In this document: in pieces, positions 8,101 through 30,989 of the stretch | Layout of the letters: each line of letters starts with the position of its first letter | Numbering within the stretch: position 1 is the stretch's first letter | IMG/VR virus record: IMGVR_UViG_3300044606_000252 | Location: 1-36,525 of that record | Source: a virus | Lineage: Duplodnaviria > Caudoviricetes | DNA length: 36,525 nt | Strand: one strand, 5' to 3' | Position numbers and translations under genes: made by a program | Notes under the pieces: generated by a model | Told to the model about the DNA's origin: nothing | Database searches by the model: none | What the model saw: the letters and a program-made list of their open reading frames with translations, nothing else

Positions 8101-8335
8101 TCTGGCCGGTGGAGTTGTAGATATTCGAGGCGAAGCTGGATATGCCGGAGGCTAGTGCCTGGATGCCCTTCGATGCGAGGTCGCCCAGAGCATTCGCCGC
8201 CGTCAATGCCGCGCCGGAGATGCCGCCCAGGCTGCCTGCGGTTGAGCCGGCATCGCTACGCACCCTGGCCATCGCGCTATGGAAGCTGGATGTATCGGCG
8301 CCGACGACGCCCTGAAGTTCGAGAATGTCTACAAC
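5144..8335 (-). CDS. Tape measure protein (1063 aa from proposed GTT start)
   Basis: Long Ala/Gly-rich helical protein with a tape-measure N-terminal domain (SPYQVETV..LAFG..NFAQIRLVGKV..DVRQLAQAG..SRTLLGLESTMKD) and the IEAKSPSK motif. It follows the tail chaperones. SD GGGGTG is followed by CATTT and GTT at 8335. The ORF-track start (8395) merely translates the terminator hairpin. Confidence 0.9.
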   Translation of the reverse strand, partial: VVDILELQGVVGADTSSFHSAMARVRSDAGSTAGSLGGISGAALTAANALGDLASKGIQALASGISSFASNIYNSTGQMQQMEVGLESLIAREMTRGQTVKETTYVQAAANKELDAFNGLTEKEWGKYQGLLDTQRKVNHQIETYEHNLTLITDKTKDAAWKTSDLNFKIDEQKVKLGNLDLELSKYTDKMTTGEKATSGMVAVTKEYTVGQMSLAEALPKATGEAKKMMEELANLAILSPYQVETVQNTNRMALAFGYSYKESVEFTRGMLEMAAGVGASNDMLDRMAYNFAQIRLVGKVTQADVRQLAQAGFGLMDVLKYVGKQSGVTVTDLDSFNEALASGKITWEQFTTDFVKYADENFGGASERMSRTLLGLESTMKDVFVLTMPKIFTPAAEAVTKFANHVLDDFLKIRNSGQLEAWGESLGNSVGGALERISAAYEKAKEFFFGPAMNPPSVIPTTSFQPEVIGPPSPTGAQKVGDILGGKVSLDVVLPDAAELVSGWVDSAATALTSEDTKDKVKAAVKTAFSVGDAALTFLNLTVEDITPSMQKLAGNVGLSAGATTGDLLLNLGAWIATMAGFPDAVPQEQLDASMQAFLGKLAKSVSNLAIAGEMAASKFITGFVSGIGQKLGINIPGLPSAEELDQEFNKYSETLRQKGFSGVFTSLMTGSWRDGIKNGLDNATEETDWGKLWLDAKKGLTTPSGAFAFDFTPGAAERGQAKLKADQYAADYGKEIGTTYKDSFDANFQAQLNTGASPEEANAFATTVAQALVFQRLQALKDEAKRIESDPENAITITPSINFQIAGMSNASAGIPQADKKIIQDRLGDMFNDVEVTPKLNLASLTSASSWKDDYNDQLAGVGTAITQGIAAPIGKDNAIESALNGKLKDVIDSGKVAIEAKSPSKLSGREIGIPIVTGIEQQVIANMPKVQTAMMGIVTAIMNVAGPAIAAATNLGASIYAALLGSMQGGLGSLGLAGAGAGGTGGLAGLDGAGGTGTGGTGSTGGTGSGNGGRYTPSVYIPAGLQKSTVVQLNIDGKQMGSALIQHLAGLIDEQSERDW

Positions 8336-8342
8336 AAATGCA

Positions 8343-8458
8343 CCCCAAATAAAAAAGCGCCCGCTCATCATCAAGATGAACGGGCGCTTATGCACGCGGG
8401 TTCGTAATATTCTGCTCTGCCGCCGGCGTGGGCATCTCTGCGAGCGCTCGGGCGACTT
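8343..8458 (-). repeat. 116-bp leader repeat, copy 1 (structured leader plus intrinsic terminator)
   Basis: 114/116 identical to 14672-14787. It ends in GCGCCCGTTCATC-TTGAT-GATGAGCGGGCGC-TTTTTTATTT on the minus strand. Confidence 0.95.
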
Positions 8459-8464
8459 TCAGCT

Positions 8465-8493
8465 ATTATATGTTGCGGAGGGTTGAATGTCAC
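8465..8493 (-). promoter_or_regulatory. Sigma70-type promoter feeding repeat copy 1 and TMP
   Basis: GTGACA (8493-8488), N17, TATAAT (8470-8465), placed about 7 nt before the repeat. Confidence 0.65.
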
Positions 8494-9182
8494 GCTATCT
8501 CAAGGGCCTAATCATCATTGGCGTTCTGGTCGTCATCTGCGCGCCGTTCGTCTATGGGCAGCGCGCAAACCCAATCACCATCACCACCCCGGAACCAACC
8601 GCGACATCCATCCAGGAGCCGCTTCAGGTTATCACCTATACCGTAAAACCATCGTCCGGCGCGCTAATTCTCAGTGGTGTCCTGACGAATACCTCCAGTT
8701 CGGGCCGGCAGGATGTGCGCGTCGTCGCCACAGTGTTTGACGCATCCGACGCCGTGATTGGCGTCGGGAAATACAACCTGGCGGCACTCAATGAAGCCCT
8801 TCCCCATTACATCTACCCGTTTGAGATTTACGTAAGCGACGTTGCCAGCCAGCCCAGCCGGATCGCCTTCGACATTCAATCCGCACCCCTGACCACCGGC
8901 TCCTACGCGCCCTATACCCATCTCAAAATAACCAATACATCCATACAGCAGTCCGGCACCAGGCGCATCGTGCGGGGAACGGTCACGAACACCGGCACCC
9001 ATGAGGCGGCGCGCCCTGTCATCATCGCTATCGCCTACCTCAACAAGAGCGTACTGGACGTGGATTACACCTCGGCCCCGGTGAGCACCATTGCGCCAGG
9101 CGAATCATCGCCGTTTGAAATTACCCTCAATGCCGGCGCCGATGCCACGATTACCATCATCGCCGACGCATTGGCGAAATAA
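8487..9182 (+). CDS. Membrane-anchored moron protein with two Ig-like (FxLYD-like) domains
   Basis: N-terminal hydrophobic helix, a PT linker, and two repeats of G-x-V/L-TN..V/I-x-A..D/N..V(I/L)..PFEI. SD GGAGG. It is opposite in strand to the tail operon. Confidence 0.7.
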   Translation: MSRYLKGLIIIGVLVVICAPFVYGQRANPITITTPEPTATSIQEPLQVITYTVKPSSGALILSGVLTNTSSSGRQDVRVVATVFDASDAVIGVGKYNLAALNEALPHYIYPFEIYVSDVASQPSRIAFDIQSAPLTTGSYAPYTHLKITNTSIQQSGTRRIVRGTVTNTGTHEAARPVIIAIAYLNKSVLDVDYTSAPVSTIAPGESSPFEITLNAGADATITIIADALAK

Positions 9183-9404
9183 CTACTTCTGTTTGCTCAG
9201 CGTCACCCGCGCCCGCAATGTCGCATTGCGGCTCGCGAGAATCCATGCCGCCCAGAATTCGCCATCAGGGCGCTCTATCAGGCCCCACGGCGTGATCGAC
9301 GGCACGTAATGACACGCCTCTATGATTGCATACCAATCCGGCAGCCGGCCAGAGCCTCCGCCGGTGATTAGCCATTCATAGATCGCGTCTTCATCGGTTT
9401 TGGG
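9183..9404 (-). CDS. -1 frameshift extension of the tail assembly chaperone (gpGT-like)
   Basis: Slippery heptamer C CCA AAA at 9404-9398. The -1 frame reads PKTDEDAIYEWLITGGGSGRLPDWY...LSKQK to TAG at 9183-9185 and has no good independent start. Confidence 0.75.
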   Translation of the reverse strand, partial: PKTDEDAIYEWLITGGGSGRLPDWYAIIEACHYVPSITPWGLIERPDGEFWAAWILASRNATLRARVTLSKQK

Positions 9405-9715
9405 GCTTCCCCCACGTCGGAGTAGATTGCCGCGCGAATCGCGTTCAACACCGGCAGCGGCACGTCATTCGCCAATGTCTCCGGCGTGATCGGGATCGGC
9501 TCACCGCCCTTCGTGATTTCCCATCCAGCCACCAGGTCACAGATGAATTCCATCGTCACGTCCAGGGCTGTTCCTTCTGGTGCCTCTTCCAACTGGCGCG
9601 TATATTCGCGCAGTTTCTCGCGCGTCGCCATTTCCGGCCGGTACGTGATCTTGAACGCCTTCGGCCCAAACGTCACGGGAATCTCGCGCCCAGTCGTTAA
9701 TTCACCAATGTCCAT
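9368..9715 (-). CDS. Tail assembly chaperone (gpG-like)
   Basis: Lies between tail tube and TMP. SD GAGGTG precedes the ATG at 9715. Contains LVAGWEI..GEPIPIT and a slippery site near the 3' end. Confidence 0.8.
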   Translation of the reverse strand: MDIGELTTGREIPVTFGPKAFKITYRPEMATREKLREYTRQLEEAPEGTALDVTMEFICDLVAGWEITKGGEPIPITPETLANDVPLPVLNAIRAAIYSDVGEAPKPMKTRSMNG

Positions 9716-9751
9716 GCTCACCTCATAAAATCATGAATGGATTCTGTCGGA

Positions 9752-10744
9752 TTACAGGCTGGTCAGCATGTTCACCAACTTGACGCTGACTCCCTTGCCC
9801 CACGTCCCGTCGTGCAGAATATCGAAGTCCCAGCCGCGTGTGGCGATGGTGTCCACCGCATCTCGGTTGTTCGGCTTGTTGACCCCGATCTTGCAATCGA
9901 CCTGGAAGAGATAGTTGTAGCCATCCTCGATCTCGGTGCCGGTGTATTGGATGCGCATCCATTTGGCGGCACCGGCGCGCATGGCGGTCAGAAATGCGGC
10001 ATTGTCGGCGTTGATCGCCATCTTCAGCGACGCCGTGGCTTTCAGCGTATCGCTGAAGCCGTGCACAGCCCAGGATGGGTTGGTTGAGCGGATCGGCCAC
10101 ACAGGCGCAAATCGATCCGTCCAACTAAACTTCCACTCGAACACGCGCTCCTGTGCCTCGGCGGCATCCAGTTCCGCCTGCGTATCTGCCAGGAAGATGT
10201 CTCCCTGGTCGGCCAGCAGCAGTACCGACGGCACCGTCGTCGGCGTGGCCGTCAGCGTTACGTCGTCGGTCACCTTCTGGGAAAGCGTCGTGCCGCCCAG
10301 CGTCAGGTCACTGCGCGTGCCGCCCAATTCCACTCCGTTGATTAGCATATAGGCGTACTTTTCCGCCCAGTCGGCGCTGCCGAACTCATGCGTGAAGCTA
10401 TCTACGGTCTCCTCGGCGTTCGAGGAGGGATCCCAACCCCAGGTATACGAAAGCCCCGTCGATGGGATATTGCGCGTCGGAGTCACATGCTTGAAAACCG
10501 AGTTGAACAGGTAGGCCAGCGTGTTGTAGCCTGGCCTGCCGTTGATTGCCCCTACTCCCCACTCGCGATTGGGATATGAGACAGTTGGCAACAGGAAGCC
10601 GGTCGGCTTGAACGAACCGCCTTCATAGTTGATGTCCGGCTTGATGAAGACGTCTTGCAGCAGCTTGTTCGCCGGAACGGCGGTCCCGTGCGTCGTTTCG
10701 ACGCCCAGTTGCATGATCTGGAAGACGTTTGAATTTTCACCCAT
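9752..10744 (-). CDS. Major tail (tube) protein
   Basis: 330 aa. N-terminal QLGVETTHGTAVPA and C-terminal VKLVN are typical of phage tail tube proteins. Synteny agrees. Confidence 0.8.
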   Translation of the reverse strand: MGENSNVFQIMQLGVETTHGTAVPANKLLQDVFIKPDINYEGGSFKPTGFLLPTVSYPNREWGVGAINGRPGYNTLAYLFNSVFKHVTPTRNIPSTGLSYTWGWDPSSNAEETVDSFTHEFGSADWAEKYAYMLINGVELGGTRSDLTLGGTTLSQKVTDDVTLTATPTTVPSVLLLADQGDIFLADTQAELDAAEAQERVFEWKFSWTDRFAPVWPIRSTNPSWAVHGFSDTLKATASLKMAINADNAAFLTAMRAGAAKWMRIQYTGTEIEDGYNYLFQVDCKIGVNKPNNRDAVDTIATRGWDFDILHDGTWGKGVSVKLVNMLTSL

Positions 10745-10763
10745 CTCTCACTCTCCTGAGCGC

Positions 10764-11195
10764 CTATGCGCTCGCTTGCGCCCGGATGGTGTATTCCCCG
10801 CCCAGGTGCCTGTATTCGCGCCCGTCATCAGACTGCTCGGGGTAACGGATTGGCCGCTCCCGCACGCAGTATTCAATCCGCCCCCCGGCGACGGCACCGG
10901 AAGCGCGGGTCAGAAGAAAATCGACTCGGTCGGCGATCAGTTGCGCTTGCGCGTATGACATGCCTTCGTCGATGACCTTCACCATGTACGGAGCCTCGCA
11001 CATGATGCGGATGTTGTTATGCACTTGGATGTCGTGAGCATCCCCCAGCATCTGATACACCACCAGCGGATATTTAGCGTCTGTCGGTGCGATGTCGGCA
11101 TAGATACGCTCCTCGCCGTCCAAGAGCGCCACCAGCGCAGCGTCGCCGGATAGCAGCTCGCTCAACCAGGTGTCGATCAGCCCAAGCTCGATCAT
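10764..11195 (-). CDS. Tail terminator / tail completion protein (DUF3168-like)
   Basis: LSGDAALVALL..RIYADIAP..AKYPLVVY motif. It precedes the tail tube gene. Confidence 0.75.
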   Translation of the reverse strand: MIELGLIDTWLSELLSGDAALVALLDGEERIYADIAPTDAKYPLVVYQMLGDAHDIQVHNNIRIMCEAPYMVKVIDEGMSYAQAQLIADRVDFLLTRASGAVAGGRIEYCVRERPIRYPEQSDDGREYRHLGGEYTIRAQASA

Positions 11196-11552
11196 CTATA
11201 GCACCTCCGAGCAGAGTACCTGCCGTGCGGTTTCCCATGTGCCGGTGACGATGGAGCCGGCCAGGAAAGTGCGCCCGCTGATCGCGACCTCATCACCTGG
11301 CTTGACGTCGGTGCCATAAGGCAGCGTAATCGTGGCATAGGCGCTGGGGACTTCCCGCTCGCCGATCTTGCGCACCCCCGGCTGGTAACTGGATACAGCT
11401 AACCTGGCTGGGAACGTGCCGATCAGCGTTAAGGTTTTGGTTTGCCCGCCCCGGCCATCCCCGGCATACGTCGGTCGCTGGACCGTCGCCTGATCCGGCA
11501 TGGCCTGTTCCTGCATCTTGCGCATAGATTCGAGCGCTGCTGAGTCGATCAC
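11196..11552 (-). CDS. Head closure / head-tail adaptor (SPP1 gp16-like)
   Basis: DGRGG...ITLPYGTDVKPGDEVAISGRTF pattern and synteny. Confidence 0.7.
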   Translation of the reverse strand: MIDSAALESMRKMQEQAMPDQATVQRPTYAGDGRGGQTKTLTLIGTFPARLAVSSYQPGVRKIGEREVPSAYATITLPYGTDVKPGDEVAISGRTFLAGSIVTGTWETARQVLCSEVL

Positions 11553-11953
11553 AGTTGGTACTCCGATAGCCGCTCACCTGTCGCAGGCGACACGAAATAG
11601 CGCGTCCCTGCCGTGATCCACTTCTTCAACCTTGGCCCTAACCGGCTACGGGCTGCGCGCATTTCCGGCCCCAGCATCGGCTGAGCGCTCATGCGGCTTG
11701 TGCCGAACTCGTTGTAGATCGTATAGGGCACAGAGTCATAGATGCGCCAGCCGGCGCGCCGCCCAACGCCGATCCGCTGCCGGTTCCAGCCACGGCGCAT
11801 AGCCCCCGTGCGCTCGCGCGAGCGCCGTTTGCAGCCCTGGACGATCTCCGCCGCCTCCTCGGCTGCTGCGTTATCGGCGGCAGCCTGCGTAGAGGCCATC
11901 AGGGTATCCAGCTTGGCCGTATTGAGCTTGAAGTCAGCCCAGATCGCTGGCAT
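11549..11953 (-). CDS. HK97 gp10-like neck/tail completion protein
   Basis: RTGAMRRG...VPYTIYNEFGTSRMSAQPMLGP matches the HK97-gp10 family signature. Confidence 0.8.
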   Translation of the reverse strand: MPAIWADFKLNTAKLDTLMASTQAAADNAAAEEAAEIVQGCKRRSRERTGAMRRGWNRQRIGVGRRAGWRIYDSVPYTIYNEFGTSRMSAQPMLGPEMRAARSRLGPRLKKWITAGTRYFVSPATGERLSEYQL

Positions 11954-13079: not shown

Positions 13080-13155
13080 CTTCTACCTCCACCGGCTTAT
13101 GCCGGGGTAATGAGCCTTAAAGACTTATGCGCTCTTCGGGTTTATCGCGTCAGGT

Positions 13156-14025: not shown

Positions 14026-14027
14026 TT

Positions 14028-14651
14028 CTACTTACCTCGTAAAAACGCTTGCACTTCGTCCCAGCGAGCATTCACTTCGTCCGGCGACATCTTCGCAATC
14101 ACCTCTGGGGTCAGCTTTACGGTGCCCCCATTGGATGGATTGGTCGTCCTGGTCGGCGGAGTCGTCGGCGGCGGGGGAGGCGTCTGAGAACCTTTCAGCC
14201 ACGGCCTAGCTGTGGTGAGCGCATCCAGCGCTGCCTTCACAGTGTCGGCGTTTGGCTCCCCATCATCGCCATAGGTGATGGCCTTGGTATCCATCAACCT
14301 GAAGGCCGCTTCCTCATCCACAATGCCAAGTTGGCGCGCAGTGCGCTCCACGTTCAGGCGCAACTTCAGGCTCTGAATCTCTGGCTTCGCCGTGGACTCA
14401 AATGCCTCAAGCGCCTTCACGCGCTCAGCTTGCTTCTGGGATTCGGTCTTCTGCGATTCCTCGATCTTCTGGAGCTTCTCTTCCAGCTCCTTCTCACGAA
14501 TGCGCCGTTTGGCGTTTTCGTCTCGCAGGGCACGAATAGTTTTGTCCGCTTCATTCGCCCCGCCATTCCCCTGGTCTGCCGGTAGCACAGGCTGCGGATT
14601 TCCGCCTGTTGGGTCGCCCCCCTGGGGCTGCTTGTTGTCGTCGCTTGGAAC
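14028..14651 (-). CDS. Capsid scaffolding protein (207 aa from proposed GTT start)
   Basis: Coiled coil (ALRDENAKRR), PWL motif and C-terminal capsid-binding helix. AGGAGG-N6-GTT at 14651, with an in-frame TGA 6 codons upstream. The N-terminus (V/M)PSDDNKQPQGGDPTGG is typical of scaffold proteins. Confidence 0.85.
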   Translation of the reverse strand, partial: VPSDDNKQPQGGDPTGGNPQPVLPADQGNGGANEADKTIRALRDENAKRRIREKELEEKLQKIEESQKTESQKQAERVKALEAFESTAKPEIQSLKLRLNVERTARQLGIVDEEAAFRLMDTKAITYGDDGEPNADTVKAALDALTTARPWLKGSQTPPPPPTTPPTRTTNPSNGGTVKLTPEVIAKMSPDEVNARWDEVQAFLRGK

Positions 14652-14671
14652 CGTTGACCTCCTGGGTCAGT

Positions 14672-14787
14672 CCCCAAATAAAAAAGCGCCCGCTCATCAT
14701 CAAGATGAACGGGCGCTTATGCACGCGGGTTCGTAATATTCTGCTCTGCCGCCGGCGCGGGCATCCCTGCGAGCGCTCGGGCGACTT
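14672..14787 (-). repeat. 116-bp leader repeat, copy 2 (structured leader plus intrinsic terminator)
   Basis: 114/116 identical to 8343-8458. Confidence 0.95.
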
Positions 14788-14796
14788 ATAGCCCAG

Positions 14797-14824: not shown

Positions 14825-14877
14825 CCTACCTATCAGACATATAATGGGCCATATAAGAAACACAGGGGGTGTTTCAT

Positions 14878-15534
14878 ATGACCACAAACCAATATGATGA
14901 CGGAATCCAGAAACTTGAAGAGCTTTTACGTCAAAAGCGAAGCACATTGAATGTGCTAGGGGGTAAGTTTGCCGATGCAGCGGGGCAATTCCTGAAAGAC
15001 TGGTATATGGATGAAGCCACACGCATGGTAAAGAGCTGTCCAGACGTCACCAAACAACTCGCTCACAATGATAGACTCTCGGGATTTAAGTCAGCAGTCC
15101 AAACTCTTCAGCAGAAAGCGACTGAGGCTGCGCATGAATTTATCATGACGGGCGATGTATGGTGGCACTATAACGGCAATCCACCTGCCATTGCTGAATT
15201 TACCATGCACGGAGGGAGCTATCCTGCGGGAGCCGATAAAGCCATACGACTAGCAGCAGGCCTGCTTGCACCTATCCTAGAAAAATACAACTATCTATCC
15301 ATATACACAAATGCAAATGTGATTTGGCGCGAGCAAGATGTCCCTGCTGGGCAAATTAAGGCGAGGCCTATGTACCCAAGAAGTTCCCCTCTGAAATGGT
15401 CCAGCGAGATGACAAAAATCTATTCAGAATACTCTGAAATATTAGAGAGCTTTGCTCCTATCGAAATACAAATTGTCGAATTAAGGAAACAAAAAGAACA
15501 ATCTGAAGCCGATGATCTGTGGAGTAAAGCCTAA
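14878..15534 (+). CDS. Low-GC moron, hypothetical protein (218 aa)
   Basis: Visibly more AT-rich than the flanks and opposite in strand. TATAAT at about 14840 and SD AGGGGG. It has N- and C-terminal coiled coils. No family was recognised. Confidence 0.75.
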   Translation: MTTNQYDDGIQKLEELLRQKRSTLNVLGGKFADAAGQFLKDWYMDEATRMVKSCPDVTKQLAHNDRLSGFKSAVQTLQQKATEAAHEFIMTGDVWWHYNGNPPAIAEFTMHGGSYPAGADKAIRLAAGLLAPILEKYNYLSIYTNANVIWREQDVPAGQIKARPMYPRSSPLKWSSEMTKIYSEYSEILESFAPIEIQIVELRKQKEQSEADDLWSKA

Positions 15535-16161
15535 TCAGCGATATTCAAACGTGCAATGGCAGTTCGTCCGGCATTGGCTATCGCCGATCCTGGGAAGTGT
15601 CCCAATCGTCTGCCAGTCCCGGCGTGCATAGTCCACACAATCAGGGCAGTGCTCGGCCACACCCAGCACGCGGCGCTCCTGAAACATTCCGGCATTGATC
15701 GCATCGGCGCGCCGGATTTCCTCATAGATGCCGCGCACTGCCTGACCATACATCCGCGCGCGAACGATCATCCGGCCATCCATCTCCTGCGCGCCGGTAT
15801 AGATTTCAAATGCGAATCGGTGCAGGAATTCGTATTGCCGGCGAACCTCCCACCCCACCCTGCCCCAATCCGAGGGCGTCATCTGTGCCCAGCCGCCTCT
15901 GGCCAGCGCGCCGGCGGCACAGGCCATGCGCTTGACGGTCAAGGCAAACTGGGTTTCCCACTCGGCCAGCGTCAACCGACCGCTCTGCAATTGAATGGTC
16001 AGGGCCTCCAGGCGCGTCTGGCTCGATTCGATGAACCGATCCAGCGCTGTCCGCACCTGGGCGAATGACACAAACCGGCCGGAATTGACATCCTGATACC
16101 GTCCAGTGCGCGCGTCCCAGTAGTACGCTGGCGTGAGATCACTGAGGCGTATTGGGGGCAT
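15535..16161 (-). CDS. Head morphogenesis / minor capsid protein (Mu gpF / SPP1 gp7-like)
   Basis: C-terminal EHCPDC...QCRTNCHC metal motif. It lies between portal and scaffold. The start is ATG 16161 (or 16179), since the upstream region encodes a separate ORF. Confidence 0.75.
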   Translation of the reverse strand: MPPIRLSDLTPAYYWDARTGRYQDVNSGRFVSFAQVRTALDRFIESSQTRLEALTIQLQSGRLTLAEWETQFALTVKRMACAAGALARGGWAQMTPSDWGRVGWEVRRQYEFLHRFAFEIYTGAQEMDGRMIVRARMYGQAVRGIYEEIRRADAINAGMFQERRVLGVAEHCPDCVDYARRDWQTIGTLPRIGDSQCRTNCHCTFEYR

Positions 16162-16321
16162 CCTGCTTCTTTCTGGCATCTGCCAATCGTCGATATTTCG
16201 CCGGCGCATGTCGCCGCCACAGCGCCTTGGCGACCTGAATGTCATGCGGCGTGACCTGCGCGAGTGCCATCAGGCTGGTGTAATCCAGCGGTGGGCCGAG
16301 AGGTTTACGAGTCTCTTGAAC
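16139..16321 (-). CDS. Hypothetical 60-aa protein with GTT start (not in the ORF track)
   Basis: AGGAGG-GAACCG-GTT. It reads (V/M)QETRKPLGPPLDYTSLMALAQVTPHDIQVAKALWRRHAPAKYRRLADARKKQDAPNTPQ*, with an in-frame TGA 6 codons upstream, and fills the gap in the operon exactly. Confidence 0.7.
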   Translation of the reverse strand, partial: VQETRKPLGPPLDYTSLMALAQVTPHDIQVAKALWRRHAPAKYRRLADARKKQDAPNTPQ

Positions 16322-16331
16322 CGGTTCCCTC

Positions 16332-16625
16332 CTAAACGCTCACCAATTCCCCGTTGGTCATGAAGCCGTGCCAGATGCCAACCACATGAATGGAGGGGGT
16401 CAGCGTAGGGGCTTCCCGATTTCCGTCCCATTGCCAATCCTCAACGTTCGCCAGTGGCGCCGGTGATAGCCGGCATGAGCCAAAGTCGCCCTCTTCAGTT
16501 CCATTGGGCACGCGGATGTATATCTTCTCGTTATCGTCGGTGAAGGCCCAATCGCCCACCTTTCCATTCTGGAGAAGGTCGGTAACGCTCTCTCGCAATT
16601 TACCTTTGGCGTTCTCTCGGTTCAT
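16332..16625 (-). CDS. DUF6527-like protein
   Basis: WQWDGNREAPTLTPSIH...WHGFMTNG signature. ATGA-type coupling to the upstream gene. Confidence 0.7.
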   Translation of the reverse strand: MNRENAKGKLRESVTDLLQNGKVGDWAFTDDNEKIYIRVPNGTEEGDFGSCRLSPAPLANVEDWQWDGNREAPTLTPSIHVVGIWHGFMTNGELVSV

Positions 16626-16864
16626 TGTTCTGCCCCCAGGTCGCGCAACACATCCCCAACGATGAGGTCTGCCAAACGCTCCGCGCCGCCATTCGCCTGC
16701 ACCCAGAACTGCATCATGGCTTTAGGGTCAAATGGCTCGGCCTTAGCGATAGCGGTAAATTCGGAATCATGCTCGGTACAAAACCTCATGCCGGCGTCGG
16801 CCTGGTTTGGCGCCTGGGGTTTATCACAGCCAAAGTAATCACACTGCTTTATTGGCTCACTCAT
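16622..16864 (-). CDS. Small Zn-finger-like hypothetical protein
   Basis: CDYFGC...FCTEH. Coupled to the portal stop codon. Confidence 0.6.
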   Translation of the reverse strand: MSEPIKQCDYFGCDKPQAPNQADAGMRFCTEHDSEFTAIAKAEPFDPKAMMQFWVQANGGAERLADLIVGDVLRDLGAEQ

Positions 16865-18354
16865 TGGTTCACCTCCGGCACCGTGTCAGCCATCGATGCC
16901 TTGACGCGGCGCGTCATCTCACGATCCTGCGAATCCATGATGCGCTTGATCTCAGTGTCCGAATATCCCATCTCGCGCAAGCGCTCCTCCGATGGCAACC
17001 CGGCAGCGTCGGCCTTATCCTTTGCCATCTGCACCTTGTTCTCTTCGGCGATACGGGACTGTTCCTTCTCCCAGTCGTAGCCTAGGCGCTCGCTGATCGT
17101 CTGGCCAGATGCCCACTTGTTGTTAAAGTCGATTTGATAGTTACCGCGTTCCTCCACCTCGTTGCGTGGCATCGGGTTGCCCCACTCCAGCGTAATATCA
17201 GCTTCTGGCCCGAACCCGCCCATCTCCAGGATGTGTTGCGCCAGAATGATGAGCATGTCGCCGTATGTGTCGCGCTTGATGGTCGTCATCTCCATCAGCG
17301 GGCCATAGAGGATTTGCAGCGCGACGCCGGCGATGGCGCCGATGGATTCAAGCTTGGCAACCGAAATGGGGGGGACTCGTGCCAGGATGAACAGGATGTC
17401 ATAGAGCCCGTTGTACAGCGACAGTGACCCCGCGATGTCGCCATGCGCTTCCAGCATCTCCATCTTGGCTGCGGTCGGGAGCAAGATCGATTCGTCCACG
17501 GCCACATTCACCTCGCCCGCTTTGACCCCCGTCCCAACGACCTTCGGGTGAGCGTGAATGCGATTGATGCGGATTGAGTTCGATAGGATGAAGTGAATGC
17601 GCCCGATCAGATGCAGAATATCGTCTTCCAGGTCGCTGCGCCCATAGAACTCGTTCGCCGCCGGCAGGTTCTGGCAATCCACAATCGGTGGCCACGAATA
17701 AGGCCATTGCACCGGCGGGCCATCCTGCACCCATGAAGAGCCCTCGCGTGAAATTTCGTCCTGAATGACCCACGTCGCCCCGCCCTGCTCATTGATACCT
17801 GTTCGCTCGATGGTCTGGCGCTTGACAAAGCTCTTGCCATTCTCATCCGTCGCGGGATACTGGATAACGTATTTCGATACGTCTTCGATGTCGTCAGAAT
17901 CCCATACGGCGTGGATGGTTGACGGATCGACAGAGTAGAAACGTGGGAACCGACTGCCGGGCTTCGGAGCTTCCAATTTGATGAACACATGCCCGCCGAT
18001 GGCACCCGACTCGGCCAACTTACGCGCAAACGTGTTGAACTTGTTCGCTTTCAGCGTGCCATTCAGAAACTGATCTTGCGGGCTCCCTTTGGTATTCGTC
18101 CCCTCGTCCTCCGACGCATCATCCGATCCCCCAACGTCAAATTCCACACCGGCGCCGAACAGGAAAGCCGTCCCCTTATCGACGATGATCCGGGCCAAGT
18201 TTGGCTTGACGTTGTCGTTTGCCTGCCCCGGCTTTGTCTTCAGTGGGTCGGCATAATCACCGTCATATGCGTTCTGAGCGGTCTTGATCCGCGCGATTCG
18301 CGCCATCTCAGCCGCTGCCGCAATCTCAACGATTTGCCTGCTAATGATGTTAAC
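16861..18354 (-). CDS. Portal protein (SPP1 gp6-like; 497 aa from proposed GTT start)
   Basis: NLARIIVDKGTAFLFG, YGRSDL, AGVALQILYGPL. It follows TerL. AGGAGG-N6-GTT gives (V/M)NIISRQ. An alternative ATG at 18378 lies inside TerL. Confidence 0.9.
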   Translation of the reverse strand, partial: VNIISRQIVEIAAAAEMARIARIKTAQNAYDGDYADPLKTKPGQANDNVKPNLARIIVDKGTAFLFGAGVEFDVGGSDDASEDEGTNTKGSPQDQFLNGTLKANKFNTFARKLAESGAIGGHVFIKLEAPKPGSRFPRFYSVDPSTIHAVWDSDDIEDVSKYVIQYPATDENGKSFVKRQTIERTGINEQGGATWVIQDEISREGSSWVQDGPPVQWPYSWPPIVDCQNLPAANEFYGRSDLEDDILHLIGRIHFILSNSIRINRIHAHPKVVGTGVKAGEVNVAVDESILLPTAAKMEMLEAHGDIAGSLSLYNGLYDILFILARVPPISVAKLESIGAIAGVALQILYGPLMEMTTIKRDTYGDMLIILAQHILEMGGFGPEADITLEWGNPMPRNEVEERGNYQIDFNNKWASGQTISERLGYDWEKEQSRIAEENKVQMAKDKADAAGLPSEERLREMGYSDTEIKRIMDSQDREMTRRVKASMADTVPEVNQ

Positions 18355-18364
18355 CCTCACCCTC

Positions 18365-19753
18365 CTAACCAAAAACATCGGGGCCTTTTTCAGCCCTCGC
18401 GCTTCCCGCAATCAGCTCGTTGTATGAGAGCGAGCTGCCATCCATGATGTCGTCGTGCGGCAAATCCGGCTGCCCGTGCATGTGATGCAGCCACATCTCG
18501 TTCCACTCTCCGCGCAGCACTTTGACGTTGCCAGCTTTCGCCTGCGCCGCAAACGCCTTGGCGCGGGTGATCTTGTCTGATCCACTCCGCACGGCAGCCA
18601 CGTCGAACCCGTCTAGCAGCCCTACCAGGCGCATCGCGTCACGGACCGCCGCTGCGCCAGGCTCCTGCTCAAAACGCACATAGTGCTCAGTCCCACTTTG
18701 GCGCGCCTGGGTGATGTCCTGCTGAGCCGTATTCACAAACAACCGGTCCGTCTCAGTGGGTCCTTCCTGAACGGCAATGCAATCCATGACGTAATAGATG
18801 CCGTTGACGCGCCTGATCTTGACGCCGGCGGTATAGTCCGGGTCGGCCTTGGCCATCTTGCGCTCGGTCGCGGCGAAGTCCCAGCCTCGGCACTCCTCGC
18901 CGCCGGCAGGCACGGCATCGACGATCTCAAACCATGCCCGGTTGAATATCTTGCCGGCGGTCGGCCTGATCTTCCAGTTGCCACCCAGCAGGCGCTGCAT
19001 ATCGACCTCGCTCAACGCCATCAATTTGGCTTTGTAGCCGGGGTCCTTCTGCATCAGCATCTGGTTGTCATCCAGGCTGGAGGGGATGAAGGTGAGCGAG
19101 GTGGGCGGCGCAAGTTTGGCTTGCACAGGATGCGCATACATCGCCTCTTCCATCGTGTCGTACCAGTGCATGATGTCGTTGATGCGATAGAACCAGCGAA
19201 TCACGCCACCCCGTTCAGGGATCGCGTAACCGGTATCCTGGTTGATCCACCATGCAATCAGCTTGGCGACGAACGAATCGGGATCCGGGTTGCAGGAAGC
19301 GCGCGTATAGGGCTTCACACCGCACGTGGAGCGGTTGCGGCTGAGCATGTAGAAGAATTGTTTTTCCGTGAAATGTGTCAGCTCATCCCACTCGATCAGC
19401 GGAATTTGCGCGCCCTGCCATTGCTCCACGTCCTTCTCGTACTGCATCGAGTCCAGCGTGACGCGCATGCCGGTTGGGAATGTATAGAACAGGTCACTAT
19501 TGTTGAACTTCGGACCGAACGGCGCATAGAGTGAGCGCGTCTCATCCAGCAAACCGCCCTGGAGGATGATCTGCGGGCGCATACGCCGGAAGATCACGGC
19601 ACCGAAATTCGGATTATTCAGGTGGCGCAATGGCTCGACGGCCAACGACCATGTCTTGCCCCCGCCGGCAGCGCCACCAAAGATGACAATGTCTGCCGGC
19701 GACGCAAGGAACAACTCCTGGCGTGGCTGGGGCCGAATGTCAATGGACGTCAT
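18365..19753 (-). CDS. terL: Terminase large subunit
   Basis: Walker A GGAAGGGKT, Walker B IEWDELTHF, coupling motif SCNP, and nuclease motifs GWDFAA and HDDIMD. Confidence 0.95.
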   Translation of the reverse strand: MTSIDIRPQPRQELFLASPADIVIFGGAAGGGKTWSLAVEPLRHLNNPNFGAVIFRRMRPQIILQGGLLDETRSLYAPFGPKFNNSDLFYTFPTGMRVTLDSMQYEKDVEQWQGAQIPLIEWDELTHFTEKQFFYMLSRNRSTCGVKPYTRASCNPDPDSFVAKLIAWWINQDTGYAIPERGGVIRWFYRINDIMHWYDTMEEAMYAHPVQAKLAPPTSLTFIPSSLDDNQMLMQKDPGYKAKLMALSEVDMQRLLGGNWKIRPTAGKIFNRAWFEIVDAVPAGGEECRGWDFAATERKMAKADPDYTAGVKIRRVNGIYYVMDCIAVQEGPTETDRLFVNTAQQDITQARQSGTEHYVRFEQEPGAAAVRDAMRLVGLLDGFDVAAVRSGSDKITRAKAFAAQAKAGNVKVLRGEWNEMWLHHMHGQPDLPHDDIMDGSSLSYNELIAGSARAEKGPDVFG

Positions 19754-20318
19754 CGCCGTTACCCTCTACCGGCGGCGTGGCAGTATCGTCGCGCCCATTC
19801 TGGGGGATGTAGAGCGTGACTGTCGCCGCCGACGTTTGAATCGGCCCACCGCCGGCGCCAGTATGCTCCTGGCGCGTCTTCAGCGCGAACTCGTCCGGGT
19901 GCAAACGCTCCAATAACCATGCGGCAGCCTGCCAGGTCCTGGAATCCGCACTGGCCGCATGGATACGTGACAGCAGTGAGGATTTTCGGCGGGGAATTGC
20001 CCCTTTTATGTACTTGAAAAATTCTAAGAAAGGGGCTTCGCGCTCTTTGGGCTTCGCGCGGGGGTGCGCGATCAGGCGGTTATATTCCTTCTCGCCGCGC
20101 AGCATCCAATTGTAGAAACTGCCCTCGTCGATGCCGTTAAGGATTGCGGCGTCCTTGTTGGGTAACCCCAGGCTGATCGAATCGCCAATCCGTTTCGCCA
20201 GCTCTGGGGTACACAACGTTTTACGCCCACGCTGAGACTCAGCCTGGGCTGCTTGCGGCTTAGGAGTTGCCTTGGTTCTCTTTGGTTTTGCTTTGGGTTT
20301 AGCTTTCGCCTTGGTAAC
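19740..20318 (-). CDS. terS: Terminase small subunit (192 aa from proposed GTT start)
   Basis: GRKTLCTPE HTH start, WQAAAWLLER, EHTGAGGGPI. It overlaps the TerL start. The reading frame extends through a KAKAKPK repeat up to AGGGG-N6-GTT, with an in-frame TAG 4 codons upstream and no ATG/GTG in between. Confidence 0.85.
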   Translation of the reverse strand, partial: VTKAKAKPKAKPKRTKATPKPQAAQAESQRGRKTLCTPELAKRIGDSISLGLPNKDAAILNGIDEGSFYNWMLRGEKEYNRLIAHPRAKPKEREAPFLEFFKYIKGAIPRRKSSLLSRIHAASADSRTWQAAAWLLERLHPDEFALKTRQEHTGAGGGPIQTSAATVTLYIPQNGRDDTATPPVEGNGDDVH

Positions 20319-20341
20319 CGTTAACCCCTAGCCAATTCAGA

Positions 20342-20455
20342 CTACGTACCAGATGAACGACCACCGCCACCACCGACGGCGCGGCGGATTCGGCCTACGA
20401 CGTTGCGGGCTCCGCGAATGATGCGGGCGAAGACGCCCTGTCCACGACTACGAAC
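20342..20455 (-). CDS. 37-aa Arg/Gly-rich amphipathic peptide (GTT start; not in the ORF track)
   Basis: AAAGGAGG-TAAAC-GTT. It reads (V/M)RSRGQGVFARIIRGARNVVGRIRRAVGGGGGRSSGT*. An alternative GTG at 20473 lies upstream of the SD. Confidence 0.7.
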   Translation of the reverse strand, partial: VRSRGQGVFARIIRGARNVVGRIRRAVGGGGGRSSGT

Positions 20456-20954
20456 GTTTACCTCCTTTCCCACTCGCTTTCATTGGAAGTGAGAGATTTG
20501 ATAGTTTCTCGTCAATTCTGGCCTGGCGATACTCGACATCCGCGGGCGGCAAGGTGAGACCAAGCGCCCTTGCCACCACGGCACCATCGAGATACTTATC
20601 ACCATGGACCAGAAGGCCGAGCTGATCCAGGAAGGATTCTTTTTGTTCGCGCGTCTGGAAGCAGATCGCGCACCAGAATTCGCTATCGACGGCGGCCATC
20701 CGGCGCTTCTCTTCAGCAGCCGCACGGGCCCTGAAAGCTTTCAGCGTCTCGCTGGCTTCGGCAACTGTGTCTTTTTCCAGGTCGCCGGTATATTGCATGC
20801 CTTCCAGCGGGTCTTTTGCCTCCCCCATCGACAGCTCATCAAACGGGATGTCCGGCACGTCGAATGACACGCCGGCGCCAGCATCGAATGACACATTCGT
20901 CTGGTCGAATGAAATCTCCGATGGGTCAGTGACGGGTGTTCTGGTGCGTGGCAT
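20448..20954 (-). CDS. Hypothetical protein, partner of the PP-loop enzyme (168 aa)
   Basis: AGGAGG SD before the ATG at 20954. Acidic N-terminus followed by DSEFWCAICFQTREQKESFL..GDKYLDG. Confidence 0.75.
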   Translation of the reverse strand: MPRTRTPVTDPSEISFDQTNVSFDAGAGVSFDVPDIPFDELSMGEAKDPLEGMQYTGDLEKDTVAEASETLKAFRARAAAEEKRRMAAVDSEFWCAICFQTREQKESFLDQLGLLVHGDKYLDGAVVARALGLTLPPADVEYRQARIDEKLSNLSLPMKASGKGGKRS

Positions 20955-21669
20955 AGCACTTCCTCCTAAAAATGTCGATGTCCGCCAGGGGGAAGAACTG
21001 GAGGATGCGTCGATAGTCGCTCGGATAGTGTTCTTGCAGCGGCTCCATGAACCGGCGGTCGATACCGTCGAAGCTACGACCAAACAGGCGATAGTCTACC
21101 GGCAACTTGACGCCGGCAGCATTGATCTCCTCGATCAGCCTTGCCTTGTTCCAGTCCCACACCGGGAAGAATGTCCGCCGGCGCTCGTTGATGGCGCCGT
21201 AGCGCGTGATCGCCGCCCGGCGTGTCGGCGAGTCTGCCGCCCGTACACCGGTGGCCATCCAGGGTTTCTCCTTATACCCCAGGTCTTCCGCAAGCCAGCC
21301 GACCAGGTCGTCATAGTTCGGCTGGGGAAAATTGATCTCTTCGATGATATGACAACGCTCCGGCGCCTGGAAGGTGAAGTTGTTGAGCCAGCGATAAAAG
21401 GATGGATGTGGGATGCGATAGATGCGCGTGTGGAAGAACTGTTCGTAGTATGCGAGAGACTCCTCCACGAATTCCAATTCCGGCACCAGCCACATATACA
21501 CGGGAATGATGCGCTTGAACGCATATTTGCGCTTGCGCAGTTCCAGCCATGCGGCAATGGAATCCTTCCCACATGAGAACGACAGGATGATCGTGTCCGT
21601 GCGGGCTTGGATCGTCTGAATTACCTTTTCCCCAGAGAGCGGTAGTGATACTTGTTTAACGCACCCCAT
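20926..21669 (-). CDS. PP-loop adenine-nucleotide alpha-hydrolase (PAPS-reductase-like) protein
   Basis: SFSCGKDS PP-loop, TGVRAADSPTRR, FFPVWDWN. SD AAGGGAG before the ATG at 21669. Confidence 0.85.
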   Translation of the reverse strand: MGCVKQVSLPLSGEKVIQTIQARTDTIILSFSCGKDSIAAWLELRKRKYAFKRIIPVYMWLVPELEFVEESLAYYEQFFHTRIYRIPHPSFYRWLNNFTFQAPERCHIIEEINFPQPNYDDLVGWLAEDLGYKEKPWMATGVRAADSPTRRAAITRYGAINERRRTFFPVWDWNKARLIEEINAAGVKLPVDYRLFGRSFDGIDRRFMEPLQEHYPSDYRRILQFFPLADIDIFRRKCYATHQNTRH

Positions 21670-21686
21670 TCTAGCAACTCCCTTTA

Positions 21687-21718
21687 AAGATGGATAGCCC
21701 CACCCTTCCGGCGATGGA
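21687..21718 (-). terminator. Strong hairpin after the 21735-22172 gene (possible terminator)
   Basis: GCCCCATCCTTCC-ATCGCC-GGAAGGGTGGGGC on the minus strand. The U-tract is weak. Confidence 0.45.
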
Positions 21719-21734
21719 AGGATGGGGCACTTGT

Positions 21735-22172
21735 TCAAGCCGGCTGGGCAACAGTAGCCCATTGCTGCGCGTGCAGGTTGCGCGCCCACATGCGAGCAAA
21801 TGAGGCGATGTCAGCCATTGCACGAGGGGCATACTTCGCGATCCTATCCTGGCTGGGAGCCAGCTCCGCGCATTCGCGCCAACCGCCGCATGGCCGGCCC
21901 ATCACCGAGATGGCCGGCTGGGTGATCTCAGTCGGCACCCATACCCCATAGCCGGTAAAGAACACGACCTCGGGGTCGGCGACGCTGTCGCTGTTCTGGG
22001 TGAAGTAGTGAGCCACGGAGATTAAGTTTTTACCGATCTTCTCAATCACAAGCGGATAAAACCCCGGCATCTCAAGCCGAAGGTGAGCACCTACCCGGGC
22101 CGTGCTCAGGTCAAAGTGATGGGCCTGGGTGATTCTGTCGATTTCCTGTTGCATGGATTTGCATGTGTTCAT
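21735..22172 (-). CDS. DUF6908-like hypothetical protein (probably leaderless)
   Basis: ISVAHYFTQNSDSVADPEVVF motif. The ATG lies 7 nt after a TACAAT -10 element and has no SD. Confidence 0.65.
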   Translation of the reverse strand: MNTCKSMQQEIDRITQAHHFDLSTARVGAHLRLEMPGFYPLVIEKIGKNLISVAHYFTQNSDSVADPEVVFFTGYGVWVPTEITQPAISVMGRPCGGWRECAELAPSQDRIAKYAPRAMADIASFARMWARNLHAQQWATVAQPA

Positions 22173-22291
22173 GTGACTAATTGTAGCGGTACTTCACAAT
22201 TAGTCAATACCCAAACATGCCAAATTTAGTATGAACTTTCCCACTCTTACCCTATTGACATATTGTGAAATATCACTACAATTAGTCATAT
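22171..22291. promoter_or_regulatory. Back-to-back mirror-image promoters (cassette 1)
   Basis: 39-bp inverted repeat (33/39 identical) at 22171-22209 and 22253-22291. Each arm is TTGAC(T/A)-N16-TACAAT. Confidence 0.85.
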
Positions 22292-22313
22292 ACAAACAGG
22301 AGGAACCTTACAG

Positions 22314-23084
22314 ATGAAAGCTTCAGAACTCACCTTCGGCATTGAAATCGAGTGCTACCTGCCCCAAACGTTGGCCCATCAGTTCCCAGTTGGCAGTTAT
22401 CATCGTGGCCTGCAAATCCCCGGTTTCCCCTCTGGCTGGAATGCTCAGGCCGATAGCAGCGTTACGACCCATGCCCCATCCGGCTATTTCGGCATCGAGA
22501 TTGTTTCTCCTGTTCTGAGCGGCGAAGCTGGGCTGTGCCAGGTGGCAGACGTGCTTGTGACACTGAATGAATTGCAAGCGAAGTCAACCGAAGCCTGCGG
22601 CATCCATGTGCATATCGGGGCGGCTGATTTCACCGAGGACGAATTGCAGCGGATTATCCGGGCCTTCCAGCGATATGAGATGGCCTTTTTTGCCCTGAAC
22701 GGTAACCAGATGAATGCCCGGCTAACAAGCCATTATTGTGCCCCATCTACACGGTGGGACGGCACCCGGTATCAATCCCTGAACACAACGAACCTCGGCA
22801 CCCGAAACAAGAACACTATCGAGTTTCGGCTGTTCTGTGCGAATTTGCAGCCTGAATTTGCCGTTGCCGGTATCTACATGGTGACGGCACTGGTTAGCCG
22901 GATGACTGAGACAACTATCAAATGCAAGACGGAGCAGCTTACCCCGCAGTTTGCGGTTAAGCGATTCGTGCATGACCACTTCAGCGGTGAGAATGCGACC
23001 AAATACACCATCCTGCCAGATGAAGACCCGGCAGACGTGGCCGAATTTCTCACGGCCAAATTGGGCGAGGCGGTAATGGAATGA
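22314..23084 (+). CDS. Amidoligase (COOH-NH2 ligase type 2 / Amidoligase_2, glutamine-synthetase-like fold)
   Basis: FGIEIE, DSS, EIVSPVL, CGIHVHIG, RYQSLN and TIEFR motifs. SD AGGAGG. Confidence 0.88.
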   Translation: MKASELTFGIEIECYLPQTLAHQFPVGSYHRGLQIPGFPSGWNAQADSSVTTHAPSGYFGIEIVSPVLSGEAGLCQVADVLVTLNELQAKSTEACGIHVHIGAADFTEDELQRIIRAFQRYEMAFFALNGNQMNARLTSHYCAPSTRWDGTRYQSLNTTNLGTRNKNTIEFRLFCANLQPEFAVAGIYMVTALVSRMTETTIKCKTEQLTPQFAVKRFVHDHFSGENATKYTILPDEDPADVAEFLTAKLGEAVME

Positions 23085-23701
23085 AACAAGTGACTGTAGC
23101 ACTGCACCCAGGATCGTGCGCGGAGGAGGTAATCAACCTCCTCCGCGCTTTATCGGCAAAGGTAGTCGTGATCGACTCATTGGCGTTGGCGCGTGGGGCG
23201 ATTTTCTCGCGTCTGCTCCTGCTGGGCGGGCCCGACATTAACCCCTTCTGGTATGGACAGTCGGCCACGCACACTCGGCGCATCGACAAGGAGCGCGACC
23301 TGATCGAATGGACGCTGGTACGCCGGGCGCTGGCAGATGAAATCCCCGTCATGGGCATTTGCCGTGGGCACCAAATGCTGGCGGCAGCCGCCGGCGGAAG
23401 TCTGTATCAAGACATTTACGCCGACGGCGCAACGCCCTATCACGCCCCAACGCACCGGCTGACGGACGTGTTGTTGCCGCTGGCCGGGCATATCCCGGTT
23501 TGCCAGGTGAATAGCTACCACCACCAGGCCGTGCGCACGCCGCCTTACGGCTGGGAAGTCGTCGCATGGTCAAGCGATGGGCTGGTCGAAGCCATCCATC
23601 GCCCCGGCGCCCTGGGTGTCCAATGGCACCCTGAAATGATGGTACGCTCCGATCCGCGCTGGCGGAAGCTCTTTAAATGGTTTTTGGCTGGGTTGGAATA
23701 G
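23081..23701 (+). CDS. Class I glutamine amidotransferase (peptidase C26 / PuuD-like)
   Basis: GGPDINP, RD..E, GICRGHQ nucleophile elbow, VNSYHHQAV, GVQWHPE (Cys-His-Glu triad). ATGA-coupled to the amidoligase. Confidence 0.9.
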   Translation: MKQVTVALHPGSCAEEVINLLRALSAKVVVIDSLALARGAIFSRLLLLGGPDINPFWYGQSATHTRRIDKERDLIEWTLVRRALADEIPVMGICRGHQMLAAAAGGSLYQDIYADGATPYHAPTHRLTDVLLPLAGHIPVCQVNSYHHQAVRTPPYGWEVVAWSSDGLVEAIHRPGALGVQWHPEMMVRSDPRWRKLFKWFLAGLE

Positions 23702-23718
23702 TGAAATAACGCTACAAT
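23700..23718 (+). promoter_or_regulatory. Third copy of the cassette-1 operator/-10 motif
   Basis: AGTGAAATAACGCTACAAT resembles TGTGAAATATCACTACAAT (22264-22282). The ATG follows 6 nt after TACAAT. Confidence 0.6.
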
Positions 23719-23724
23719 ATAGCT

Positions 23725-24021
23725 ATGAGCAAACTCTACACCACTGGCGACGTCGCCCAAATGCTGAACCGCAAGCAGGTTTCAATTGCGATGAACGCCG
23801 TCCGCCACAACATCGGGCAGGTGATCGGGAAGATGCGCCTGTTCACCGAGGAGGATGTGGAGAAGTTGCGCGGTATCACGTCGCGCGGCCCGGGCCGGCC
23901 TGCGGACCCGACAGCGAAATATCACAAGCAGCACAAAACTAGGAAAGCTCCGGTTCCGTCGCCAGAATCAGCGCCTGCACCCGAGGGAGCAACTCGGCGG
24001 GCACGCCGTGCTCGTGCATGA
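23725..24021 (+). CDS. Small helix-turn-helix (MerR/excisionase-like) DNA-binding protein
   Basis: LYTTGDVAQML...RLFTEEDVEKLR...GPGRP. Confidence 0.75.
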   Translation: MSKLYTTGDVAQMLNRKQVSIAMNAVRHNIGQVIGKMRLFTEEDVEKLRGITSRGPGRPADPTAKYHKQHKTRKAPVPSPESAPAPEGATRRARRARA

Positions 24022-24133
24022 GTAACCCCAGCGCTCGCACATGAATCTCCTCGCGTGGTGTATCTCCCACTTGTAGCTGCATCTCCAGCGCCATCACGAC
24101 GCCTTTGACGACCAGGGCCCATGAATCACTCAT
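23939..24133 (-). CDS. Possible 64-aa hypothetical protein downstream of the tRNA
   Basis: ATG at 24133 with a weak SD (AGGG) and a protein-like composition. It overlaps the low-complexity tail of the convergent HTH gene. Confidence 0.35.
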   Translation of the reverse strand: MSDSWALVVKGVVMALEMQLQVGDTPREEIHVRALGLLMHEHGVPAELLPRVQALILATEPELS

Positions 24134-24146
24134 GGGCCCTATTCTA

Positions 24147-24220
24147 TAGCGGGGGTGGGAATTGCACACCACGACCTCCAGTTTGTTGGACTGGCGAGCT
24201 AACTTCTGCTCTACCCCGCG
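24147..24220 (-). tRNA. Initiator-type tRNA (tRNA-fMet scaffold) with anticodon AAC (reads GUU)
   Basis: CGCGGGG-TA-GAGC-AGAAGTTA-GCTC-G-CCAGT-CCAACAA-ACTGG-AGGTC-GTGGTG-TGCAATT-CCCAC-CCCCGCT-A. It forms a full cloverleaf with C1xU72 mismatch, G2:C71, C3:G70, A11:U24 and A73. The anticodon is at 24187-24185. CCA is not encoded. Confidence 0.9.
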
Positions 24221-27443: not shown

Positions 27444-27444
27444 G

Positions 27445-30969: not shown

Positions 30970-30989
30970 TTCTGTTCTCCCTGCATGGA

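Follow-up and report, generated by a model that had tools for sequence, protein, structure and literature searches.

Phage initiator-like tRNAs with altered anticodons and putative private start codons: an AAC tRNA and six late genes with GTT at the start

An initiator-like tRNA with the anticodon AAC and six late genes with GTT at the start were found in the siphophage late region on the minus strand of the window (the whole stretch of DNA analysed, 36,525 nucleotides (nt); IMG/VR virus record IMGVR_UViG_3300044606_000252, positions 1 to 36,525; gene names from PHROGs). In other phages the anticodon of such tRNAs and the first codon of a neighbouring small gene change together; therefore these phages likely begin some of their proteins at a private start codon. 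That the initiator-like tRNAs of this family initiate at private start codons is considered highly probable from comparison of the sequences; with a little less assurance, the AAC tRNA of the window probably starts the six GUU proteins, for whose synthesis the phage would then rely on a tRNA that it supplies itself. Such a private start would likely place virion assembly under the control of a phage tRNA. The anatomy of the tRNA, the placement of the six codons and the covariation of anticodon and first codon are direct observations.

The AAC tRNA (24147..24220, minus strand; no encoded CCA) was matched by Rfam RF00005 with 41.1 bits (E 2.7e-7); ARAGORN and a fast-filter, gathering-level Rfam scan of the window both missed it. 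Acceptor and D stem are of the tRNA-fMet type (acceptor CGCGGGG, C1:U72 mismatch, A11-U24, A73), the anticodon loop reads C32 C33 A34 A35 C36 A37 A38, and the anticodon stem is A29-U41/G30-C40/U31-A39 (au/GC/ua), in which the middle pair of the three-G-C stem (3GC) is kept and the other two are not. The preliminary description had claimed an initiator architecture with the anticodon AAC; this stood for the C1:U72 mismatch, A11-U24, the acceptor and the anticodon itself, and fell short in the 3GC stem, and since that stem is missing the window tRNA is not a full initiator. Set against tRNA-fMet, it has the 1:72 mismatch and A11-U24 and lacks the three G-C pairs 29-31:39-41 and the CAU anticodon; set against elongator tRNA-Val, it lacks the paired 1-72, and its cognate codon is not enriched in the phage genes, GTT accounting for 34 of the 354 internal late Val codons. 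The nearest annotated GenBank phage tRNAs are tRNA-Met/fMet (75-81% identity). The ValRS identity elements, given as A35, C36 and A73 in the available part of a preprint (bioRxiv 10.64898/2025.12.21.695813), are all present.

Each of the six late genes (all on the minus strand) has a Shine-Dalgarno sequence (SD) 5-6 nt ahead of an in-frame GTT, at 20455, 20318, 18354, 16321, 14651 and 8335; the SD is AGGAGG in four cases and GGGGT in two. Six late genes in which an SD leads to an in-frame GTT had been noted in the preliminary description. None of the six has a canonical start with an SD; of 15 late genes with canonical starts that were listed for comparison, 14 have an SD-like motif 5-9 nt upstream. 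GTT makes up 34 of 5732 internal late codons, and six GTT out of six would arise by chance at ~2e-10 (post-hoc estimate, corrected for 61 codons). When SD-spaced codons were ranked blind among the late ORFs that lack a canonical SD start, GTT led with 6 and GAT followed with 4; taken alone, this ranking is noisy. The late genes are open under table 11, and the marks of stop-codon recoding (in-frame stops together with a suppressor tRNA) were not found in them. Neither RNA editing of the start codon nor a T-box mechanism had any support, and both were rejected, the codons standing at ribosomal spacing without an alternative start.

The 37-amino-acid (aa) Arg/Gly/Ser-rich open reading frame (ORF; 20342..20455, AGGAGG-5nt-GTT) is the conserved target of the tRNA family; its homologs start with GTT in G001 and G006, the two nearest complete relatives, and with ATG in tRNA-less loci. 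In the terminase small subunit (TerS; 19740..20318, GTT start) the first ATG/GTG/TTG of the open frame comes not before codon 37; in G006 the TerS has GTT as the sole start near its 5' end, and in G001 it uses ATG. The Val(GTT) of the portal (16861..18354, AGGAGG-6nt-GTT; PHROGs) aligns with the Met start of G001, P0013, P0019 and P0023; indels of a relative at 18369 and 18376 are compatible with an upstream portal ATG being either kept or lost. In the 60-aa ORF (16139..16321, AGGAGG-6nt-GTT) the residues upstream of the first ATG are conserved in the homolog P0112. The head scaffold (14028..14651, AGGAGG-6nt-GTT) has an in-frame stop 6 codons upstream and is 207 aa long from GTT (top homologs, 198-212 aa); its SD and GTT are retained in a ~88% identical strain (contigs from one study). 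The tape measure protein (5144..8335, GGGGT-6nt-GTT) has the weakest SD of the six, and no homolog was found for its N-terminus; its upstream ATGs sit inside a repeated leader hairpin, and in a relative the GTT is kept and a 1-nt insertion shifts these ATGs out of frame. Portal, scaffold and 60-aa protein had been shortened by the gene callers (P0001, P0113 and P0111, respectively). GTT on portal, scaffold and tape measure was seen in this phage and its closest strain only. The late-gene targets proposed earlier (TerS, portal, scaffold, tape measure) thus do carry GTT here, but the target conserved in the family is the small Arg/Gly-rich ORF by the PAPS-reductase-like gene.

The same gene list bears on the proposal, made in the preliminary description, that the tRNA bypasses defences which cleave tRNA-fMet, and on a broader form of it, in which late translation evades host defences cutting or blocking tRNA-fMet(CAU). 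Altered anticodon loops would escape CAU-specific nucleases; the proposal nevertheless fits poorly, because the major capsid protein (MCP), the terminase large subunit (TerL) and most late genes keep ATG: 15 of the 21 listed late genes, MCP and TerL among them, start with ATG/GTG and still need host fMet-tRNA. Defence evasion is therefore regarded as very unlikely.

Pattern scans of IMG/VR, covering 120 of ~200 stretches plus 63 stretches, gave at least 99 de-duplicated tRNA loci in at least 25 sequence clusters; the anticodons among the matches listed were GAC (50), AAC (41), TAC (2), TTT (2) and GTT, GGT, TAT and GAT (one each), to which a later scan added CAG and CAC. Among 68 distinct parsed non-CAU tRNAs the 1:72 mismatch was found in 67, A11-U24 in all 68 and G30-C40 in 30; the anticodon reads Val in 58. 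G001 (capsid 78% identical) carries a syntenic fMet-like tRNA whose anticodon is AAC too. The PAPS-reductase-like gene lies downstream of the tRNA in 16 clusters and is followed in most of them by ParB-like, terminase and portal genes. The cultured Bacteroides phage BS-TP2 (PQ571275.1) carries a GAC tRNA missing from its annotation and a GTC ORF, gp53, which contains an internal ATG from which it was annotated; an ASCH-domain gene stands directly after its tRNA. In Riemerella phage RAP44 the small ORF begins with ATG, and no such tRNA was seen within the 5.7 kb examined. In L456, L458 (about 2810-3450), L461, L464, L154, L155 and L157 the tRNA is split behind the anticodon arm by an HNH-like ORF, whose motif was read by eye; an intact copy then follows the broken one in two of the four such loci checked, and in L456 and L458 this second, complete tRNA has GAC. 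L203 has an fMet-like body with the anticodon GAT, for which no cognate start was established.

Covariation was scored on the Arg/Gly-rich small ORF (35-70 aa) that adjoins the PAPS-reductase-like gene, the first start-capable codon of this ORF being taken as the first codon of the locus. In 65 loci with the PAPS gene within 1.1 kb, AAC went with GTT in 32 of 33 and GAC with GTC in 29 of 30 (the lone exception looks frameshifted); TAC went with GTA in one of two, the second TAC locus being without such a small ORF. In L127 (anticodon GGT) the homologous small ORF and two other ORFs start with ACC, and many private codons sit directly after an in-frame stop. With one row per cluster, the first codon was the complement of the anticodon in 15 of 16 clusters (AAC/GTT, GAC/GTC, TAC/GTA, GGT/ACC); nine of the 25 clusters, without a scorable small ORF, were left out. 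In a permutation test 4 of 2,000,000 permutations reached this match, and p was 2e-4 after collapse to ten lineages chosen from the PAPS tree. On that tree, built from 37 chosen rows and with its long branches flagged, AAC turns up in five separate places and TAC in one, which implies several switches or module exchanges. The covariation strongly implies a function of the tRNA in initiation. A blind count of SD-preceded starts across all tRNA loci gave no enrichment of the cognate start, because SDs are few in the Bacteroidota-like loci that form the majority, and the small ORFs fall under the length cut. An A-rich box followed by GCYGA forms a conserved context ahead of the private codon (L091, L140, L127, L227, L259). 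In Bacteroidota-type loci the -1 base pairs with tRNA position 37 (A:U; G:C in L165); this pairing fails in the window (1/6) and in G006.

The same loci bear on the idea that the N-terminal residue itself is what matters, formyl-Val resisting deformylation and changing how stable the small basic peptide and the virion proteins are, or how they function. The 58 Val-reading anticodons of the 68 are in keeping with it, and formyl-Val persisted at ~30% in an engineered system, according to the accessible part of the report (bioRxiv 10.64898/2025.12.21.695813); however, ATG, ACC and GUN all serve as starts of homologous small ORFs, and CTG and AAC starts exist too, so that an effect of this residue appears improbable as the reason for the pairs.

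Co-occurrence was examined in a set chosen blind to the tRNA, the best 80 of 571 loci by PAPS homology (many of them near-identical and some shared with the first set; four of the anticodons were re-read by eye). The combinations were GAC/GTC in 66; AAC/GTT in 1; no tRNA/ATG in 3; GAC/ATG in 5, namely four with a decayed tRNA and L516 with an intact one; AAC/ATG in 3, all one phage (L244); 2 were too short. All three loci that lacked the tRNA with ~4 kb of upstream sequence at hand thus had an ATG small ORF, as did the four with decayed tRNAs. The window-type cassette gave 180 loci in 58 clusters, 25 of them scorable and 33 not; GTT was found in both scored clusters with the tRNA and in none of the 23 without (in four clusters, three tRNA-less ones and cluster 1, the automatic ORF pick was wrong and the small ORF starts with ATG). 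When only loci with at least 4.5 kb upstream were taken and the window was added, GTT was present in 3/3 with the tRNA vs 0/16 without (Fisher p 0.001). For the matched tRNA/GUU initiation pair put forward in the preliminary description, the comparative tests suggested there (co-occurrence, ATG where the tRNA is absent, covariation of anticodon and codon) came out in its favour.

Putative private starts were also seen independently, on structural genes. The complete, unrelated provirus G011 carries a C1:A72 tRNA with the anticodon CAG (L560:17808-17881) between TerL and a 483-aa gene, which by its position would be the portal. Its SD-CTG starts are those of TerS, TerL, the 483-aa gene, major capsid, major tail and two further frames of 128 and 43 aa; ATG, GTG or TTG begins the remaining listed genes, with the exception of a 58-aa weak-SD CTG frame inside the endolysin gene. 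Ten loci similar to this CAG tRNA were noted among L533-L559. In L098 (anticodon GTT) the next gene has SD-AAC.

A number of observations weigh against initiation at private codons. In the window, an ATG without an SD lies 8 codons upstream of the portal GTT, and in the portal homolog P0002 (72% identical) the residue matching this GTT is Gly, with a Met 7 residues upstream. Portal and scaffold use ATG in both G001 and G006 despite their AAC tRNA; G001 uses ATG for TerS and tape measure as well, and the GTT of its small ORF directly precedes TTG. Elsewhere, the small ORFs of L244 (AAC) and L516 (GAC) start with ATG, although in L244 both ParB and a 149-aa gene have SD-GTT; L144 (TAT), L170 (TTT), L120 (TAC) and L134 (AAC) yielded no matching start, and in the CAC loci (L540, L543, L553/L557) a private start would look the same as ordinary GTG use. 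In G011, CTG is the Leu codon used most often, and it is a rare known start. As for the tRNAs, the full 3GC was found in 1 of the 68 distinct non-CAU members and C30-G40 in 37; the window tRNA is moreover odd in elbow and T stem compared with its kin (D-loop without GG, G55, an extra (bulged) U in the T stem). In E. coli, a C30-G40 change failed (PMC5389676), and an initiator without 3GC was non-functional in initiation in the wild type, as stated in the accessible part of PMC6393288. On the favourable side, the window tRNA keeps G30, the base of the 3GC stem that matters most in E. coli (PMC5389676), and an extended SD, reportedly (by the title of one paper), bypasses the 3GC defect.

These features of the tRNA, namely the missing 3GC stem and the odd elbow and T stem, would also suit another account of the six genes, in which host fMet-tRNA reads GUU at trace level and keeps the proteins scarce, the phage tRNA being an elongator, a decoy or, here, a decaying copy. 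Weak GUU initiation by host fMet-tRNA is described in the available part of bioRxiv 10.64898/2025.12.21.695813, and unformylated tRNAs with a 1:72 mismatch can elongate, according to the part of PMC6393288 at hand. Against this, trace reading does not predict covariation over four codons; GTT is scarce among the internal late Val codons (34/354, as above); the window scaffold and the MCP and major tail protein of G011 are high-copy proteins; and the one tRNA among the 68 parsed family members that is without the D-loop GG also has G55, as in the window, which looks compensatory. Trace initiation is accordingly thought unlikely, and initiation by the phage tRNA at its own codon is preferred.

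The steps would then be as follows. The tRNA would be transcribed behind the lysis genes and charged by host ValRS via A35, C36 and A73; it would be formylated by Fmt, with the 1:72 mismatch keeping EF-Tu off, and would enter the P site at SD-GUU, where host fMet-tRNA would yield background only. Formylation and IF2 delivery to the P site are inferred from G2-C71, C3-G70 and the 1:72 mismatch (PMC5389676; PMC6393288), the mismatch being described in the accessible part of the latter as favouring Fmt and avoiding EF-Tu. An engineered E. coli initiator tRNA with AAC initiates at GUU only, 8-10-fold over background, and its products had 59% Val and 30% formyl-Val at the N-terminus, according to the part of bioRxiv 10.64898/2025.12.21.695813 that is available.

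As to purpose, the chances are judged to be about even that the pair gates late translation, so that late expression would have to satisfy a further condition at the level of translation. Scaffold and tape measure, each the first gene behind a copy of the repeated leader, are among the GUU genes, as is the small ORF ahead of TerS; the tRNA itself comes behind the lysis genes, and its targets would stand behind a separate predicted promoter and two 121-nt leaders with a terminator-like hairpin. In Bacteroidota-type loci the small ORF ends -1 to 4 nt from the next ATG (from the PAPS ATG in 79/79 measurable loci of the 80-locus set), and one private start could therefore hold back a coupled operon. 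The broader proposition, that unrelated phages repeatedly made tRNA-fMet into private initiators for codons that the host hardly reads (GUU, GUC, GUA, ACC, CUG, AAC), serving as a translational AND-gate, may equally well be right or wrong. If true, these codons would mark the packaging, head and tail genes that come first or limit the rate, no virion proteins would be made in the lysogen or before late infection, and the start codon would have been naturally reassigned to act as a genetic switch. Host abortive-infection sensors can be set off by portal, terminase or capsid protein that is made by leaky expression. A purely temporal lock is weakened by the finding that in many relatives the tRNA shares an operon with its target.

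The same initiation pair might also have arisen without any regulatory purpose, the starts having drifted to the codon of the tRNA until the phage could no longer do without it (a neutral ratchet or addiction). Recoding is patchy, with six genes in the window, two in G006 and a single one in G001; the anticodon varies freely, ATG returns where the tRNA is lost, and the HNH-like gene travels with a replacement tRNA copy, all of which agrees with drift. Drift does not, however, account for the origin of the tRNA, for the targeting of the same small ORF across distant clades, or for the restriction of recoded starts in the window and G011 to genes of the late and packaging region; it is held to be a possible though rather doubtful explanation.

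The minus-strand late order is holin, GH25 endolysin, SH3/PA14, PAPS-reductase-like, TerS, TerL, portal, scaffold, capsid, tail and tape measure. The host may be of the Chloroflexota, because the named portal homologs come from Chloroflexota metagenome-assembled genomes. The holin, GH25 endolysin and SH3/PA14 genes (24265..28527, minus strand) are upstream of the tRNA on the same strand and are probably co-transcribed with it; directly 3' of the tRNA, a 12-bp hairpin without U tract (24113..24141, minus strand; fold z -5.6) is possibly a processing or stability signal. The PAPS-reductase-like (PP-loop) gene (20926..21669, minus strand; ATG; PHROG 2302) is the marker linked to the tRNA family; its profile matched CysD and PAPS reductases, the match to Cap9 (E 0.89) being not significant. 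The same cassette holds a 168-aa acidic hypothetical protein (20448..20954, minus strand; ATG), for which no family was found in Atlas. A sigma70-like promoter predicted at 22180..22207 (minus strand) would serve the PAPS-to-terminase operon and appears separate from the transcription unit of the tRNA. A cassette of PAPS-like, acidic or ParB-like and small basic peptide genes is widespread before terminase genes (window 20342-23701; BS-TP2 gp52-gp55), often with amidoligase and GATase genes near it.

The 121-nt leader is present on the minus strand in two copies, 97% identical: copy 1 (14672..14792) ends in a strong hairpin and U tract directly before the scaffold SD, and copy 2 (8343..8463), before the tape-measure SD, contains two upstream ATGs. 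Promoter-like hexamers lie upstream of both; no significant match to Rfam (T-box, other known leader RNAs) was obtained, the best scores being far below the gathering cut-offs. The two look like an antitermination-controlled late leader; a hairpin similar to theirs was seen at 28550-28583. Two stretches, 14857-15534 (plus strand) and 16334-16862, are missing in the close strain (contig joints) and are probably recent insertions. Inverted repeats of 46 nt at 30976-31145 and 22164-22298 flank divergent promoter regions and are possible operator sites. At 9183-9730 (minus strand) two ORFs overlap in different frames ahead of the tape measure, the usual site of the tail-chaperone frameshift.

In the textbook view, bacterial initiation uses one tRNA (CAU) with a 3GC stem. 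Bacterial tRNA-fMet and its phage copies (Pseudanabaena phage Pan5, Mycobacterium phage Myrna) share with the window tRNA the acceptor, the D stem, the 1:72 mismatch and A11-U24; the window tRNA differs in that its anticodon is not CAU, the 3GC stem is absent and Val instead of Met is predicted. In the literature searched (titles and abstract openings) no natural private initiator/start pair was found, and the precedents are engineered only. The closest is the E. coli initiator tRNA with AAC, which, in the available parts of the two reports (bioRxiv 10.64898/2025.12.21.695813; 10.1101/2021.05.25.445580), likewise has an initiator body, AAC, the cognate GUU and expected Val/formyl-Val; it is a laboratory construct based on metY and has the full 3GC, whereas the phage tRNAs are natural, without 3GC, and come with their own recoded genes. 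In stop-codon recoding, as presented in the accessible part of bioRxiv 10.1101/2021.08.26.457843, a phage tRNA likewise alters the code, with a proposed regulation of late or lytic genes; that recoding acts at stops in elongation, whereas here the start codon is changed, and in selected genes only.

Natural initiators with other anticodons and their own start codons would, if true, show the code to vary in a new way, at the start position; they would give a testable function to some phage tRNAs, whose role is a long-standing question, would account for mis-called or missed phage genes, and would be a source of evolved orthogonal initiator/codon pairs and of natural tests of how tRNAs without 3GC pass the ribosomal checks. 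A rare non-canonical bacterial start, the AUU of infC, is read by host fMet-tRNA under IF3 control; it is likewise a non-AUG control point but, unlike the phage pairs, has no dedicated tRNA.

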